Below, one piece after another: positions 7,979-15,671 of a DNA stretch of 23,274 nucleotides. Source of the stretch: a virus (taxonomy: Duplodnaviria > Heunggongvirae > Uroviricota > Caudoviricetes). A model generated the notes under the pieces. That model searched no databases. It saw only the letters and a list, made by a program, of their open reading frames with translations, and was not told the DNA's origin. Position numbers and translations under genes: made by a program. The stretch lies in the IMG/VR virus record IMGVR_UViG_2571042372_000002; one strand, given 5' to 3'. The stretch's first letter is position 1; every line of letters starts with the position of its first letter.

Positions 7979-8008
7979 GCGGGGGCGAAATGCCCCCGTG
8001 TCTTTTTT
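7979..8008 (+). terminator. intrinsic-terminator-like hairpin immediately after the major capsid gene
   Basis: CGGGGGC-GAAAT-GCCCCCG (7-bp GC stem) followed by TGTCTTTTTT, starting 8 nt after the E stop and ending before the FI ATG at 8023. Confidence 0.6.
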
Positions 8009-8022
8009 CACAGGGGGCTGAT

Positions 8023-8406
8023 ATGGCAACGAAAGAGCAAAATCTGAAACGTCTTCGTCAACTGGCTGACCTGCTGGGGCGCGAGGCGGATATATCCGGG
8101 AGTGCCGCAGAGATAGCGCAGCGGGTGGCAGAATGGGAAGAGGAGCTTGCTGTTTCCCCGGAGGGCATTATGCACTCTGATGAGAGCGGGGCTGATCAAA
8201 ATCACACAGACGATGGTGAGCAGTTGAACAACACGGATGCTCCGGATGATGTTAAAGCCGTCCGGGTACGGAAGTGCCTGCAAGTAATGGGGTATTGCCC
8301 GGAGACAGGTCGTCCCGTTGAGCTGGCGTTACGGGGTATGCGTGTTCTGGTGCCATCATCACTGGCAACGGCCATGATACAGCACGGAATGGCTGTTTAT
8401 GCGTGA
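8023..8406 (+). CDS. FI: DNA packaging / head assembly protein FI homolog
   Basis: Position between E and FII. Start placed at ATG 8023 with AGGGGG SD, giving 127 aa (about 132 aa in lambda), because the upstream GTG 7975 would put the terminator hairpin inside the coding region. Sequence is diverged from lambda FI; assignment is mainly by synteny and size. Confidence 0.7.
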   Translation: MATKEQNLKRLRQLADLLGREADISGSAAEIAQRVAEWEEELAVSPEGIMHSDESGADQNHTDDGEQLNNTDAPDDVKAVRVRKCLQVMGYCPETGRPVELALRGMRVLVPSSLATAMIQHGMAVYA

Positions 8407-8752
8407 TTTTCAGAATGCCTTTGATGCCGCCCTTGCCGGGGTGGACAGTACGATTGTTGAAGTGATGGGCATCAGTGCGCAGTTCACCTCCGGTGCACAG
8501 CGTGGCGGCGAGGTTCATGGCGTTTTTGACGATCCGGAGTCGCTGGGTTTTGCCAGTAGTGGGATCCGTATTGAAGGAAGTAACCCGTCATTATTTGTGC
8601 TTACGGATACGGTTTGTGCTGTACGGCGTGGTGACACGCTGACCATTAACGGCGAGATGTTCTGGGTGGACCGTGTTTCTCCGGATGACGGAGGGAGTTG
8701 TTATCTCTGGCTCAACCGGGGGCAACCACCTGCAGTTAACCGGCGACGATAA
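8399..8752 (+). CDS. FII: head-tail connector protein FII homolog
   Basis: 117 aa; C-terminal ...RGDTLTINGEMFWVDRVSPDDGGSCYLWLNRGQPPAVNRRR is near-identical to the lambda FII C-terminus as recalled. Overlaps the FI stop. Confidence 0.92.
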   Translation: MRDFQNAFDAALAGVDSTIVEVMGISAQFTSGAQRGGEVHGVFDDPESLGFASSGIRIEGSNPSLFVLTDTVCAVRRGDTLTINGEMFWVDRVSPDDGGSCYLWLNRGQPPAVNRRR

Positions 8753-8767
8753 ACGCAGGGTGAAATT

Positions 8768-9301
8768 ATGGCCATAAAAGGTCTTGAGCAGGCCGTTGAA
8801 AACCTCAGCCGGGTTCGTAAAAACGCCATTCCGGCGGCTTCAGCAATGGCCATTAACCGCGTGGCCACAACGGCGATTAATCAGTCTTCATCACTGGTTG
8901 CCTGTGAGACAAAGGTACGCCGGAAACTGGTAAAGGAAAGGGCCAGGCTGAAAAGGGCCACGGTCAAAAATCCGCAGGCCAGAATCAAAGTTAACCGGGG
9001 GGATTTGCCCGTAATCAGGCTGGGGATCAGGATGCTGGGGCGTCGCCCGAACAGCATACTTAAAGCCGGTCAGCATCGGTATCAGCGGGCGTTTATTCAG
9101 CAACTGAAAAATGGCCGGTGGCATGTCATGCAGCGTGTGGCCGGGAAAAACCGTTACCCCATTGATGTGGTGAAAATCCCGATGGCGGTGCCACTGAAAC
9201 AGGCATTTGATGAGAATGTTGACCGTATACGGCGTGAACGCCTGCCTAAAGAACTGGCATACGCGCTGCAGCATCAACTGAGAATGGTAATAAAGCGATG
9301 A
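8768..9301 (+). CDS. Z: tail completion protein Z homolog
   Basis: 177 aa (192 aa in lambda), at the Z position between FII and U; ATGA-type overlap with U. Confidence 0.85.
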   Translation: MAIKGLEQAVENLSRVRKNAIPAASAMAINRVATTAINQSSSLVACETKVRRKLVKERARLKRATVKNPQARIKVNRGDLPVIRLGIRMLGRRPNSILKAGQHRYQRAFIQQLKNGRWHVMQRVAGKNRYPIDVVKIPMAVPLKQAFDENVDRIRRERLPKELAYALQHQLRMVIKR

Positions 9302-9693
9302 AACATACTGAACTCCGTGCAGCCGTACTGGATGCACTCGAGCAGCATGAACACGGGGCGACGCTGTTTGATGGTCGCCCCGTTGTTTTTGACGAAGAGG
9401 ATTTTCCTGCGATCGCGGTTTATCTCACCGGCGCTGAGTATACCGGTGAAGAGCTGGATGCAGATACCTGGCGGGCCACGCTGCATATTGAAGTTTTCCT
9501 GCCTGCTCAGGTGCCGGATTCAGAGCTGGATTCGTGGATGGAGTCCCGGATTTATCCGGTGATGAGCGATATCCCGGCACTGGCAGGACTGATTACCACG
9601 ATGGTTACGCAGGGCTATGAGTACCGGCGCGACGACGATATGGCGTTATGGAGTTCAGCCGATCTGACTTATGTCATTACCTATGAAATGTGA
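9298..9693 (+). CDS. U: tail terminator protein U homolog
   Basis: 131 aa; [54 protein letters not shown]... is near-identical to lambda gpU. Confidence 0.95.
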
Positions 9694-9700
9694 GGACGAT

Positions 9701-10453
9701 ATGCCAACACCAAATCCCCTTGAGCCGGTAAAAGGTGCCGGGACCACACTGTGGGTTTATAACGGCAAGGGTGATGCTTATGCAAACCCGTTGTCAGACA
9801 ATGACTGGTCGCGTCTGGCAAAAATTAAAGACCTGACGCCCGGCGAACTGACCGCTGAGTCCTATGACGATAACTACCTGGATGATGAAGATGCGGACTG
9901 GACCGCGACCGGGCAGGGGCAGAAATCCGCCGGAGATACCAGCTTCACGCTGGCGTGGATGCCCGGAGAGCAGGGGCAGAAAGGGCTTATAGGCTGGTTT
10001 GAAAGCGGCGATGTCCGTGCCTATAAAATCCGCTTCCCGAACGGCACGGTCGATGTGTTCCGTGGCTGGGTCAGCAGTATCGGTAAGGCGGTGACGGCGA
10101 AGGAAGTGATCACCCGTACGGTGAAGGTCACCAATGTGGGTAAACCTTCTGTAGCGGAAGAACGCAGCAAAATTACGCCGGTCAGTGCGATTAAGGTGAC
10201 GCCGACATCCGGTACGGTGGTGAAAGGGCAGAGCACCACGCTGACCGTGGCCTTCCAGCCGGAGGGCGCAACTGACAAGAGCTTCCGTGCGGTGTCAGCG
10301 GATAAAACAAAAGCCACCATTAGTGTGAAAGATATGACAATCACCGTGAACGGCGTTGCTGCAGGCAAGGTCAACATTCCGGTTGTATCCGGTAATGGTG
10401 AACTTGCTGCGGTTGCAGAAATCACTGTCACCGAAGCGGGCGCTGCAGGGTAA
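9701..10453 (+). CDS. V: major tail protein V homolog (with C-terminal Ig-like domain)
   Basis: Start at ATG 9701 with [27 protein letters not shown]...[20 protein letters not shown]...[31 protein letters not shown] is near-identical to lambda gpV. The ORF track's upstream start at 9671 is less likely. Confidence 0.93.
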
Positions 10454-10466
10454 ACGGAGGTAATAC

Positions 10467-10898
10467 ATGTTCCTGAAAACCGAATCATTTGAACATAACG
10501 GCGTGACCGTCACGCTTTCTGAACTGTCAGCCCTGCAGCGTATTGAGCATCTCGCCCTGATGAAACAGCAGGCAGAACAGGCGGAATCCTGCGGCAACCG
10601 GCAGGTTACTGTGGAAGACGCCATCAGAACCGGTGCTTTTGTGGTGGCGATGTCCCTGTGGCATAACCATCCACAGAAAACGCAGTCACCGTCAATGAAT
10701 GAGGCCGTGATGAAGATAGAGCAGGAAGTGCTTACCACCTGGCCCGCGGATGCCATTGCCCGGGCGGAAAACGTGGTGTACCGGCTGTCCGGTATGATCG
10801 AAGCTGTTCGTCCGGATACTGATATTACTGAAGTGGCGAAAAATAACACGCTGACTGATGATGATTTTTCTGCGGGAAAGTGTTCGACGGTGAGCTGA
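10467..10898 (+). CDS. G: tail assembly chaperone G homolog
   Basis: 143 aa; MFLKTESFEHNGVTVTLSELSALQRIEHLALMK...SAGKCSTVS is near-identical to lambda gpG. GGAGG SD upstream. Confidence 0.95.
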   Translation: MFLKTESFEHNGVTVTLSELSALQRIEHLALMKQQAEQAESCGNRQVTVEDAIRTGAFVVAMSLWHNHPQKTQSPSMNEAVMKIEQEVLTTWPADAIARAENVVYRLSGMIEAVRPDTDITEVAKNNTLTDDDFSAGKCSTVS

Positions 10899-11326
10899 GT
10901 TTTGCCCTGAAACTGGCGCGAGAGATGGGGCGACCTGACTGGCGCGCCATGCTTGCCGGGATGTCATCCACGGAGTATGCCGACTGGCACCGCTTTTACA
11001 GTACCCATTATTTTCATGATGTTCTGCTGGATATGCACTTTTCCGGGCTGACGTACACTGTGCTCAGCCTGTTTTTCAGCGATCCGGATATGCATCCCTC
11101 TGATTTCAGTCTGCTTGTCCCCCGGCATGAGGAAGAGCAGGTGGAGAGGCCGGATGAGGACAAAATGCTGATGCAGAAAGCGGCAGGGCTTACCGGAGGC
11201 GTCCGCTTCGGTGGGGACGGAGGGCGCGATATTTTATCGTCTGCGGATGTGGCGGATGTCATGGTGGATGATGCCGCATTAATGATGGCTTCAGCAGGGA
11301 TCGCGGGAGGAGTCCGGTATGGCTGA
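10467..11326 (+). CDS. T: tail assembly protein G-T fusion (made by -1 frameshift at 10874-10880; T portion is 10880..11326 in the -1 frame)
   Basis: The -1 frame ORF 10880..11326 has no plausible independent start or SD, overlaps the G 3' end, and ends 8 nt into H, as for lambda gpGT. Confidence 0.8.
10874..10880 (+). promoter_or_regulatory. programmed -1 ribosomal frameshift slippery heptamer G GGA AAG (G to G-T fusion)
   Basis: GGGAAAG sits in the X_XXY_YYZ register relative to the G frame (codons GCG GGA AAG TGT give A G K C). The -1 frame is open from 10880 to 11326 and encodes a T-like protein. Same heptamer and position as the lambda G/GT frameshift. Confidence 0.85.
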
Positions 11327-13898
11327 ACCGGTAGGCGATCTGGTCGTTGATTTAAGTCTGGATGCTGTCCGTTTTGATGAGCAGATGAGCCGGGTAAGGC
11401 GTCATTTTTCAGGTCTGGATACCGACGCCAGAAAAACCGCCAGTGCTGTTGAACAGGGCCTGAGCCGCCAGGCGCTGGCTGCACAGAAAGCGGGGATTTC
11501 CGTCGGGCAGTATAAAGCCGCCATGCGTATGCTGCCTGCACAGTTCACCGACGTGGCCACGCAGCTTGCCGGTGGTCAGAATCCCTGGCTGATCCTGCTG
11601 CAACAGGGTGGTCAGGTTAAGGACTCCTTCGGCGGGATGATCCCCATGTTCCGGGGGCTTGCCGGTGCGATCACCCTGCCGATGGTCGGGGCCACCTCGC
11701 TGGCGGTGGCGACCGGTGCGCTGGCGTATGCCTGGTATCAGGGTAACTCAACCCTGTCCGATTTCAACAAAACGCTGGTCCTTTCCGGCAATCAGTCGGG
11801 TCTGACGGCAGATCGTATGCTGGTCCTGTCCAGAGCCGGGCAGGCGGCAGGGCTGACGTTTAACCAGACCAGCGAGTCACTCAGCGCACTGGTTAAGGCG
11901 GGAGTAAGCGGTGAGGCTCAGATTGCATCCATCAGCCAGAGTGTGGCGCGTTTCTCCTCTGCATCCGGCGTGGAGGTGGACAAGGTCGCTGAAGCCTTCG
12001 GGAAGCTGACCACTGACCCGACGTCGGGGCTGACGGCGATGGCGCGCCAGTTCCATAACGTAACGGCGGAGCAGATTGCGTATGTTGCTCAGTTGCAGCG
12101 TTCCGGCGATGAATCCGGGGCATTGCAGGCGGCGAACGAGGCCGCAACGAAAGGGTTTGATGACCAGACCCGACGCCTGAAAGAGAACATGGGCACGCTG
12201 GAAACCTGGGCAGACAGGACAGCACGGGCATTCAAATCCATGTGGGATGCGGTGCTGGATATTGGTCGTCCGGAATCCTCAGCGGATATGCTCGCCAGTG
12301 CGCAGAAGGCATTTGATGAGGCGGATAAAAAATGGCAGTGGTACCAGAGCCGGAGCCAGCGCCGGGGAAAGACCTCCTCTTTTCGTGCGAACCTTCAGGG
12401 GGCATGGGATGATCGTGAAAAGGCCCGTCTGGGTCTGGCAGCGGCCACGCTGCAGTCGGATATGGAAAAAGCCGGTGAACTGGCGGCAAGGGACAGGGCT
12501 GAGCGTGAGTCGTCACGGCTGAAATATACCGAAGAGGCGCAGAAGGCTTACGAACGGCTGCAGACGCCGCTGGAGAAATATACCGCCCGTCAGGAAGAAC
12601 TGAACAAGGCACTGAAAGACGGGAAAATCCTGCAGGCGGATTACAACACGCTGATGGCGGCGGCGAAAAAGGATTATGAAGCGACGCTGAAAAAGCCGAA
12701 ACAGTCCGGCGTGAAGGTGTCTGCGGGCGATCGTCAGGAAGACAGTGCTCATGCTGCTCTGCTGACGCTTCAGGCAGAACTCCGGACGCTGGAGAAGCAT
12801 GCCGGAGCAAATGAGAAAATCAGCCAGCAGCGCCGGGATTTGTGGAAGGCGGAGAGTCAGTTCGCGGTACTGGAGGAGGCCGCCACGAAACGGCAGTTAT
12901 CTGAGCAGGAGAAATCCCTGCTGGCGCATGAAGATGAGACGCTGGAGTACAAACGCCAGCTGGCTGAGCTGGGAGACAAGATTGAACACCAGAAGCGCCT
13001 GAACGAGCTGGCGCAGCAGGCGGATAAATTCGCACAGCAGCAACGGGCAAAACGGGCCGCAATCAGCGCAAAAGCCCGCGGCCTCACCGACCGTCAGGCG
13101 CAGCGGGAGTCGGAAGAGCAGCGCCTTCGTGAGGTGTACGGTGATAATCCGGCTGCGCTGGCGAAGGCCACATCGGCACTGAAAAAGACCTGGGCGGCTG
13201 AAGACCAGCTTCGCGGGAACTGGATGGCAGGCCTGAAGTCCGGCTGGAGTGAGTGGGAAGAGAGCGCCACGGACAGTATGTCGCAGGTAAAAAGTGCAGC
13301 CACGCAGACCTTTGATGGTATTGCGCAGAATATGGCGGCGATGCTGACCGGCAGTGAACAGAACTGGCGCAGCTTCACCCGTTCCGTGCTGTCCATGATG
13401 ACAGAAATTCTGCTTAAGCAGGCAATGGTGGGGATTGTCGGGAGTATCGGCAGCGCTATTGGCGGGGCTGTTGGTGGCGGCGCATCCGCGTCAGGCGGTA
13501 CAGCCATTCAGGCCGCTGCGGCGAAACTCCATTTTGCAACCGGAGGATTTACGGGAACCGGCGGCAAATATGAGCCAGCGGGGATTGTTCACCGTGGTGA
13601 ATTTGTCTTCACGAAGGAGGCAACCAGCCGGATTGGCGTGGGAAATCTCTACCGGCTGATGCGCGGCTATGCCACCGGCGGTTATGTCGGTGGCACCGGA
13701 AGTCCGGCGCAAATGCGGCGTTCAGAGGGTATCAGGTTTGAGCAGAACAACAACGTGGTGATTCAGAACGACGGTACGAATGGTCTGCCAGGTCCACAGA
13801 TGATGAAGGCGGTGTATGACATGGCCCGCAAGGGTGCCCGTGATGAAATCCAGGCACAGATGCGCGATGGTGGTCTGTTCTCCGGAGGTGGACGATGA
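11319..13898 (+). CDS. H: tail tape measure protein H homolog
   Basis: 859 aa (853 aa in lambda). N-terminus MAEPVGDLVVDLSLDAVRFDEQM... and C-terminus ...ARKGARDEIQAQMRDGGLFSGGGR are near-identical to lambda gpH as recalled. Confidence 0.95.
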   Translation: MAEPVGDLVVDLSLDAVRFDEQMSRVRRHFSGLDTDARKTASAVEQGLSRQALAAQKAGISVGQYKAAMRMLPAQFTDVATQLAGGQNPWLILLQQGGQVKDSFGGMIPMFRGLAGAITLPMVGATSLAVATGALAYAWYQGNSTLSDFNKTLVLSGNQSGLTADRMLVLSRAGQAAGLTFNQTSESLSALVKAGVSGEAQIASISQSVARFSSASGVEVDKVAEAFGKLTTDPTSGLTAMARQFHNVTAEQIAYVAQLQRSGDESGALQAANEAATKGFDDQTRRLKENMGTLETWADRTARAFKSMWDAVLDIGRPESSADMLASAQKAFDEADKKWQWYQSRSQRRGKTSSFRANLQGAWDDREKARLGLAAATLQSDMEKAGELAARDRAERESSRLKYTEEAQKAYERLQTPLEKYTARQEELNKALKDGKILQADYNTLMAAAKKDYEATLKKPKQSGVKVSAGDRQEDSAHAALLTLQAELRTLEKHAGANEKISQQRRDLWKAESQFAVLEEAATKRQLSEQEKSLLAHEDETLEYKRQLAELGDKIEHQKRLNELAQQADKFAQQQRAKRAAISAKARGLTDRQAQRESEEQRLREVYGDNPAALAKATSALKKTWAAEDQLRGNWMAGLKSGWSEWEESATDSMSQVKSAATQTFDGIAQNMAAMLTGSEQNWRSFTRSVLSMMTEILLKQAMVGIVGSIGSAIGGAVGGGASASGGTAIQAAAAKLHFATGGFTGTGGKYEPAGIVHRGEFVFTKEATSRIGVGNLYRLMRGYATGGYVGGTGSPAQMRRSEGIRFEQNNNVVIQNDGTNGLPGPQMMKAVYDMARKGARDEIQAQMRDGGLFSGGGR

Positions 13899-14927: not shown

Positions 14928-15671
14928 ATGACAGAGACAGAATCAGCGATTCTGGCGCATGCCCGGCGATGTGCGCCAGCGGAGTCGTGCGGCTTCGTGG
15001 TGAGAGCGCCGGAGGGGGAAAGATATTTTCCCTGCGTGAATATCTCCGGTGAGCCGGAGGCGTATTTCCGGATGGCTCCGGAGGACTGGCTGCAGGCAGA
15101 GATGCAGGGTGAGATTGTGGCGCTGGTCCACAGTCATCCCGGTGGTCTGCCCTGGCTGAGTGAGGCCGACCGGCGGCTGCAGGTGCAGAGTGATTTGCCG
15201 TGGTGGCTGGTCTGCCGGGGGGCGATTCATAAGTTCCGCTGTGTGCCGCATCTCACCGGGCGGCGCTTTGAGCACGGGGTGACGGACTGTTACACGCTGT
15301 TCCGGGACGCTTACCATCTGGCGGGGATTGAGATGCCGGACTTTCATCGTGAGGATGACTGGTGGCGTAACGGCCAGAATCTCTATCTTGATAATCTGGA
15401 GGCCACAGGGCTGTATCAGGTGCCGTTGTCAGCGGCGCAGCCGGGCGATGTGCTGCTGTGCTGCTTTGGTTCATCGGTGCCGAATCATGCCGCTATTTAC
15501 TGTGGTGACGGCGAGCTGCTGCACCATATTCCTGAACAACTGAGTAAACGAGAGAGGTATACCGACAAATGGCAGCGACGCACACACTCCCTCTGGCGTC
15601 ACCGGGCATGGCGCGCATCTGCCTTTACGGGGATTTACAACGATTTGGCCGCCGCATCGACCTTCGTGTGA
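14928..15671 (+). CDS. K: tail tip assembly protein K homolog (JAMM/MPN plus NlpC/P60-like)
   Basis: The C-terminal 199 aa from M49 (nt 15072) match the lambda K protein as I recall its annotation. The full ORF adds 48 N-terminal residues. JAMM-type motif HSHPGGLPWLSEAD (HxHx7Sx2D) is at 15129-15170. Overlaps I by 103 nt as in lambda. Confidence 0.88.
   Translation: MTETESAILAHARRCAPAESCGFVVRAPEGERYFPCVNISGEPEAYFRMAPEDWLQAEMQGEIVALVHSHPGGLPWLSEADRRLQVQSDLPWWLVCRGAIHKFRCVPHLTGRRFEHGVTDCYTLFRDAYHLAGIEMPDFHREDDWWRNGQNLYLDNLEATGLYQVPLSAAQPGDVLLCCFGSSVPNHAAIYCGDGELLHHIPEQLSKRERYTDKWQRRTHSLWRHRAWRASAFTGIYNDLAAASTFV

Follow-up and report, generated by a model that had tools for sequence, protein, structure and literature searches.

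A probable programmed -1 ribosomal frameshift of the lambda G/GT type in a phage tail module

The 23,274-nt stretch of phage DNA that we analysed over its full length (the window) carries tail genes in the order Z-U-V-G-T-H. V, G, T and H all lie on the + strand and match the Pfam families of their lambda counterparts. The overlapping G and T reading frames sit between the gene for the major tail protein and the gene for the tape measure. The features at this locus are the following.

9701-10453, + strand: gene V, major tail tube protein (PF16461, E 2.4e-69, plus Big_2)
10456-10460, + strand: Shine-Dalgarno (SD) sequence GGAGG of G (anti-SD pairing -10.8 kcal/mol)
10467-10898, + strand: gene G, tail assembly chaperone, zero-frame product of 143 aa (PF06894, TIGR01674)
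10856-10864, + strand: three consecutive TGA codons in the -1 frame, from GAT GAT GAT (Asp) codons of G
10874-10880, + strand: slippery heptamer G_GGA_AAG (from sequence and register; same in lambda, phage 21 and PhiR12_1)
10880-11326, + strand: T segment in the -1 frame, 148 codons plus TGA (PF06223, TIGR01715, phrog_32165)
join(10467..10880,10880..11326), + strand: predicted GT fusion of 286 aa (conceptual translation)
11306-11312, + strand: SD sequence GGAGGAG of H (anti-SD pairing -10.3 kcal/mol)
11319-13898, + strand: gene H, tape measure protein (PF06791, PF09718)

The V gene likely starts at ATG 9701, while the mechanical ORF begins at 9671. G matches PF06894, the family of the lambda tail assembly chaperone G, with an E value of 3.8e-53 (179 bits, cutoff 27) and the TIGR01674 equivalog over residues 1-138 (170 bits, cutoff 74). 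The -1 ORF, which a preliminary description of this DNA had called T-like, is a member of the minor tail protein T family PF06223 (E 2.7e-14, 53.8 bits, cutoff 25.9). The TIGR01715 equivalog matches residues 143-252 of the conceptual fusion (E 9e-61, 203 bits, cutoff 77). With the G model ending at residue 138 and the T model beginning at residue 143 of the 286-aa product, the two NCBIfam models abut at the slip site. G is 77% identical to lambda gpG and T is 79% identical to its lambda counterpart. The fusion also aligns end to end with phrog_32165 (residues 1-285 of 290, E 2.4e-167), and this family therefore consists of full-length GT products. A PDB sequence search with the GT fusion returned no matches. 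At its C-terminal end (11180-11323), T contains a duplicated motif, AAGLTGGVRFG ... SAGIAGGVRYG, with an acidic stretch between the copies. The T stop and the ATG of H (11319) overlap by 8 nt (11319-11326).

The GGGAAAG heptamer lies on the + strand at 10874-10880, near the 3' end of G, where the preliminary description had placed it. Its register is G_GGA_AAG, the correct X_XXY_YYZ arrangement, with 10875 as the first base of G codon 137. Around the site, the zero frame runs ...TTT TCT GC[G GGA AAG] TGT TCG ACG GTG AGC TGA, with five sense codons between the heptamer and the G stop. Upstream of and over the site, the -1 frame reads ...HAD, three stops and then FFCGKVFDGELS... It opens at 10865, 9 nt 5' of the heptamer and 31 nt before the G stop, so that G and the -1 frame overlap over 10865-10895 (31 nt) with the heptamer inside. 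With the T frame blocked upstream by the TGA codons at 10856-10864, a productive -1 shift is confined to this interval. Past the slip, 148 sense codons (10880-11323) are followed by TGA at 11324-11326; the 149 open codons reported earlier are obtained when either the stop or the re-read lysine codon is counted. The junction ...SAGK-VFDGELS... given in the same description is the one found in the conceptual GT fusion.

The bare heptamer occurs at chance frequency in the window (3 copies against 3.38 expected). To place the site among comparable sequences, we surveyed every in-register X_XXY_YYZ heptamer in the window's 21 + strand ORFs (n = 19). The open -1 frame after the heptamer extends for 148 codons at 10874-10880 and for 1-57 codons at the others, and this heptamer is the sole one among the 19 at the very end of an ORF. 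With the -1-frame stop frequency measured in the window's genes (0.067), the probability of 148 open -1 codons is approximately 3.7e-5. Unlike the bare heptamer, the context of this site is far from chance.

Three further sequences came up in this connection. GGGAAAG at 12365-12371, inside H, is in register, with just 13 open -1 codons after it; it lies in a patch that diverges from PhiR57_1 and is probably a chance occurrence. GGGAAAG at 15016 in K is out of register and was treated as chance. An in-register A7 run in the terminase gene A (2732-2738), followed by 57 open -1 codons, is probably due to chance as well.

Could T be a gene of its own, read from GTG 10880 or from an internal ATG such as the one at 10925, with the heptamer merely incidental? 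The preliminary description held that T has neither a start codon nor an SD sequence. The first part of this claim did not stand, as an in-frame GTG (10880) comes right at the end of the heptamer, and several public records contain a stand-alone T CDS. The second part did: the best anti-SD pairing available to this GTG (-4.3 kcal/mol) is weak, involves GGGAA of the heptamer itself and has practically no spacer. The ATG codons at 10925, 10949 and 10961 reach just -3.0 to -1.9 kcal/mol, compared to -10.8 kcal/mol for G and -10.3 kcal/mol for H at proper spacing. Initiation at ATG 10925 would also drop 15 conserved residues, including the ELxF motif. Moreover, only the lambda subfamily has a start codon immediately after the site. 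The N15, mEp460/Gifsy-2 and Stx1 subfamilies have GCC, GTC or GCA at this position and yet keep the slippery heptamer. In reviews, the lambda T sequence appears only as the frameshift-derived part of gpGT, and free gpT is not mentioned (PMC5009743). Judged by its sequence, T seems to be devoid of translation initiation signals of its own, which makes an independent start highly improbable. We hold with great confidence that the T segment is translated solely as the C-terminal half of the GT fusion.

Public records annotate this one locus inconsistently, either as separate CDS with two different starts or as a joined frameshift CDS. T begins at the equivalent of GTG 10880 in the lambda RefSeq (NC_001416) and PhiR57_1 records, and at an internal start in the PhiR12_1 record and in PGAP annotation (ATG 10925). 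The same event is explicitly annotated in phage 21, where the GT product is recorded as a joined CDS, and in N15 and LLS, which carry slippery-sequence features; LLS also has a joined frameshift CDS.

The immediate surroundings of the heptamer are strongly conserved. A stretch of 15 nt, TTTCTGCGGGAAAGT, is invariant in 46 distinct G-T sequences and is shared by lambda, phage 21 and PhiR12_1. The roughly 70 nt just upstream, which encode the C-terminal linker of G, are highly divergent and come in two unrelated types when lambda, phage 21 and PhiR12_1 are compared. With the exception of a few decayed copies, 98 fetched loci (46 distinct) have GGGAAAG in the same register and a -1 ORF of T length downstream of it. 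Relatives with as little as 26% identity in G keep a heptamer ending in A_AAG at the same place. This heptamer is G_GAA_AAG in N15, HK225, LLS, mEp460, Gifsy-2 and 80 further IMG/VR loci, and A_AAA_AAG in Stx1 phages and 1720a-02. In 195 loci, the conserved GACTGGCG of T, which encodes Asp-Trp-Arg, is preceded at a distance of exactly 56 nt by GGGAAAG, GGAAAAG or AAAAAAG; all three heptamer classes end in A_AAG. The fusion and its lambda counterpart align without interruption over the junction, and the N-terminal ~95 residues of T are nearly identical. Within the lambda subfamily, the three synonymous positions of the heptamer are invariant, but so are 45% of the third positions in G; taken alone, synonymous-site invariance is weak evidence for constraint on the heptamer.

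Two of the decayed copies illustrate how the locus degenerates. In one IMG/VR contig (locus L094, 2399-2704), the T frame is broken after ~70 residues. In a Shigella flexneri chromosome (locus L023, 2001-2088 and 2393-2489), G is cut to 29 codons and indels follow past the heptamer.

The 31-nt overlap contains a second sequence on which a -1 shift may be imagined, besides or instead of the heptamer. A single tRNA could slip on the U5 run (GAT TTT TCT, 10863-10871), which would produce the junction ...DDDF-FCGKVFD... and the peptide DDDFFCGKVFDG. The -1 frame is open from 10865, so that movement of tRNA-Phe from UUU 10866-10868 to UUU 10865-10867 would be productive, and among the tetramer classes of E. 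coli U_UU.Y ranks second in shiftiness (PMC4066793). The run is present in G variants of the PhiR12/E. albertii type. However, lambda, phage 21, N15 and the other subfamilies lack it, whereas the A_AAG heptamer is universal. Slippage on a tetramer only is far weaker than slippage on a heptamer (PMC6924986), and the run is explained by the Asp-Phe-Ser coding of this G variant. Taken together, a shift at the U run appears very unlikely.

The same run has two further properties. It supplies T_TTT_T, on which a single tRNA could slip, inside the open part of the -1 frame. Situated directly 5' of the heptamer, it can also pair with the latter (AUUUUUC / GGGAAAGU, 10864-10881) to form a small hairpin; a 101-nt fold that includes this hairpin has a z-score of -2.24.

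A G-T fusion would be expected from transcriptional slippage as well as from ribosomal slippage. RNA polymerase could stutter at GGGAAAG and produce mRNA with one base less or one base more, and the AAAAAAG variant of Stx1-type relatives does contain a run of 6-7 A. Transcriptional realignment requires runs of about seven or more (reviewed in PMC5009743), whereas the homopolymer runs at 10874-10880 are just three G and three A. In lambda, G-T frameshifting responds to anticodon modification of tRNA-Lys, which is a ribosomal signature (PMC3296357). We regard polymerase stutter as extremely improbable at this site.

Having weighed these alternatives to a ribosomal slip on the heptamer, we turn to the elements that may stimulate such a slip. 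An SD-like stimulator was not found upstream; anti-SD pairing close to the site is confined to that of the heptamer. The 60 and 100 nt 3' of the heptamer are no more stably folded than dinucleotide shuffles (z = +0.23 and -0.85), and an Rfam scan of the whole window gave no matches at gathering thresholds. RNAalifold applied to 10 diverse sequences predicted one structure downstream of the heptamer, separated from it by an 8-nt spacer:

10889-10895/10951-10957 (outer helix) and 10914-10929/10934-10949 (inner helix), + strand: candidate stem-loop (RNAalifold)

By analogy to dnaX and IS911, this stem-loop might stimulate the slip, and its spacer is in the usual range. In the 10 sequences, 91% of the cells are paired and five pairs show compensatory changes. 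The covariation score of 0.181 compares with 0.073 for shuffles and with at most 0.099 when the structure is slid along the alignment. A stimulator would also fit the published rates: bare G_GGA_AAG supports 0.28% frameshifting in a reporter, or 3.8% with the IS911 stimulator (PMC4066793 Table S3), as opposed to ~4% in lambda, although this is a comparison across studies. On the other hand, across 35 distinct sequences just 79.8% of the cells pair, and half of the sequences have lost the core pairs 43-74 and 44-73. RNAalifold on these 35 sequences did not recover the stem-loop but returned a different fold of -2.84 kcal/mol. The fold z-scores of the downstream 60 and 100 nt, given above, are not unusual. 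The segments that pair are the ones coding for the conserved LAR and WRA of T, and their complementarity can be a by-product of coding. In the gpG cluster of Sharma et al., a hairpin is found in 51% of the members with a ddG/nt of 0.020 +/- 0.095, below the threshold of 0.09 (PMC4066793 Table S8). A stimulatory role of the stem-loop is thus doubtful.

We rejected the stem-loop as a feature of the family, as it fails on the 35 distinct sequences and is thermodynamically ordinary, and retained it as a low-probability feature of a subfamily. It would have to be subfamily-specific because the mEp460/Gifsy-2 subfamily cannot form it. It seems unlikely, then, that the structure at 10889-10957 is a real weak stimulator that raises slippage from ~0.3% to ~4% in the lambda/N15/Stx1 subfamily only, or that the U5 run tunes the rate. 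No robust stimulatory RNA structure was found downstream of the heptamer, which sets this site apart from stimulated -1 frameshifts of the dnaX/IS3 type.

The anatomy of the locus, its homology, its conservation and the lack of an independent initiation signal lead us to conclude, with little doubt, that the site is a programmed -1 ribosomal frameshift of the lambda-type tail chaperone pair G/GT. The earlier proposal of a canonical lambdoid G/GT frameshift is supported by gene order, protein families, the heptamer, its conservation and public annotations, and we identified no sequence evidence against it. As far as sequence can be consulted, every element of the lambda G/GT frameshift is present. 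Because all of these elements are conserved, and because the 97 nt from the heptamer onward are identical to those of PhiR57_1, we infer that the mechanism is the same. Slippage itself, its rate and the roles of the proteins would follow what experiments on lambda have established.

According to this model, most ribosomes would read G_GGA_AAG in frame and stop five codons on, yielding the 143-aa G protein. A small fraction would slip back by 1 nt, with the P-site tRNA-Gly moving from GGA to GGG and the A-site tRNA-Lys (mnm5s2UUU) from AAG to AAA. Slipped ribosomes would translate 148 further codons to give the 286-aa GT protein with the junction ...FSAGK-VFDGELS... and the predicted junction peptide DDDFSAGKVFDGELSFALK. 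The shared G part is expected to bind the tape measure protein H, and the T part to recruit the major tail protein V. A fixed low slip rate would set the G:GT ratio for tail assembly, and presumably neither G nor GT ends up in the virion. These assignments are modelled on lambda, where G:GT is ~30:1, G binds H, T binds V and neither protein is found in the virion (PMC5009743).

GGGAAAG is the lambda G/GT slippery sequence in Table 1 of PMC3296357 and in PMC7618472. In lambda, ribosomes keep the zero frame on GGGAAAG in ~96% of the cases to make gpG, and the remainder produce gpGT; when tRNA-Lys (mnm5s2UUU) is hypomodified, slippage increases and less phage is produced (PMC3296357, PMC7618472). 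The body text of PMC3296357 (Maynard et al. 2012) prints GGGTTTG (GGT-TTG / GGG-TTT) in place of the GGGAAAG of its Table 1, a typographical slip that matters to anyone who relies on that passage. G_GGA_AAG directs frameshifting in vivo and in vitro (PMC6924986), and of all tetramers, A_AAG shifts most readily in E. coli (PMC4066793). The site described here probably works mainly via this intrinsic shiftiness of A_AAG in E. coli.

The frameshift is correctly identified, already known and a textbook case, and our understanding of the mechanism is unchanged. The main value of the result is for annotation: the locus should be recorded as G (10467..10898) and GT (join(10467..10880,10880..11326)), with no free-standing T gene. 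The concern that a single-frame annotation would miss T is justified for the fusion but not for T itself, which pipelines call as a separate ORF. As known for lambda (PMC5009743, PMC3296357), GT may be produced at a few percent of G and be required for tail assembly. Since the G:GT ratio is essential for lambda tail assembly, the presence of the site marks the tail module as probably functional.

The closest relatives of the window as a whole are PhiR57_1, phage 21 and ev017, which are ~98% identical to it over 23 kb, as are many E. coli prophages. In contrast, the G-T patch is just ~85% identical to these three phages, with local drops to 61-79% at 10412-10511, 10712-10911 and 11112-11311. 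The closest relatives of this patch (~91%) are PhiR12-type phages and E. coli prophages. In the genome collection, the best match by G protein identity (89%) is E. albertii, and the 3' end of G resembles the PhiR12 / E. albertii / Stx2a type. The G-T patch is a mosaic replacement of the ordinary lambdoid kind.

Patches with 32-80% identity to PhiR57_1 (8000-8456, 8957-9111, 10112-10211, 10412-11411, 12212-12586 and 13087-13186) sit within a 23-kb head-tail region that is otherwise 99-100% identical. They fall in FI, Z, the Ig-like domain of V, the linkers of G and T and the middle of H. A conserved island, made up of the slip site and the N-terminus of T (10912-11011, 100% identical), separates two divergent patches. 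Elsewhere in the window, an ABC-3 family permease is encoded on the - strand at 22575-23267 (PF00950, E 1.7e-56), just right of the side tail fibre gene and the small ORFs at 21899-22177 and 22190-22483. The PhiR57_1 record names this protein SitD (manganese/iron transporter), and it looks like metal-uptake cargo beside the tail genes. The collected loci also included lambda-identical G genes (L005-L017) on low-coverage contigs, several of them ~48.4 kb long, from assemblies labelled Neobacillus, Oceanobacillus, Pseudomonas, Kitasatospora, Shewanella, Chromatium, Leeuwenhoekiella and others. These are almost certainly lambda control DNA that contaminated the assemblies.

Among known frameshift systems, dnaX and IS911/IS3 rely, like the present site, on tandem slippage in which tRNA-Lys reads A_AAG in the A site (PMC4066793, PMC6924986). 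They differ in that the heptamer is accompanied by an SD-like element upstream and/or, downstream, by a strong hairpin or pseudoknot, and in reaching tens of percent. The lambda-type rate is a few percent, and stimulators like those of dnaX/IS3 are not supported in the window. N15 (gp14/gp15), HK225, LLS, mEp460, Gifsy-2, Stx1 and 1720a-02 have the same G/T families, the same position of the heptamer and the same A_AAG codon in the A site. Their P-site codon is not GGA but GAA (N15, HK225, LLS, mEp460 and Gifsy-2) or AAA (Stx1 and 1720a-02); G_GAA_AAG has been described as less slippery (PMC6924986). The T proteins of N15, LLS, mEp460 and Gifsy-2 end after the first GGVR(F/Y)G motif, whereas the lambda type carries a second copy.

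Lambda itself, whose G/G-T -1 frameshift was reportedly characterized by Levin, Hendrix & Casjens in 1993 and by Xu, Hendrix & Duda in 2004, 2013 and 2014, differs from the window as follows. The C-terminal linker of the window's G (~residues 111-134) is longer than that of lambda and different in sequence (IEAVRPDTDITEVAKNNTLTDDDF vs YEFVVNNAPEQTEDAGPAEPV). Unlike the lambda linker, it puts the U5 run and the three -1 TGA codons beside the site. T likewise diverges in its acidic middle and its C-terminal part, and the fusion comprises 279 aa in lambda and 286 aa in the window. Shared with lambda are the G_GGA_AAG heptamer, its register, its position five codons before the G stop and the 15 nt around it. 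The same is true of the order V-G-T-H and of the 8 nt by which the T stop and the H start overlap (T 10115..10549 and H 10542.. in lambda).
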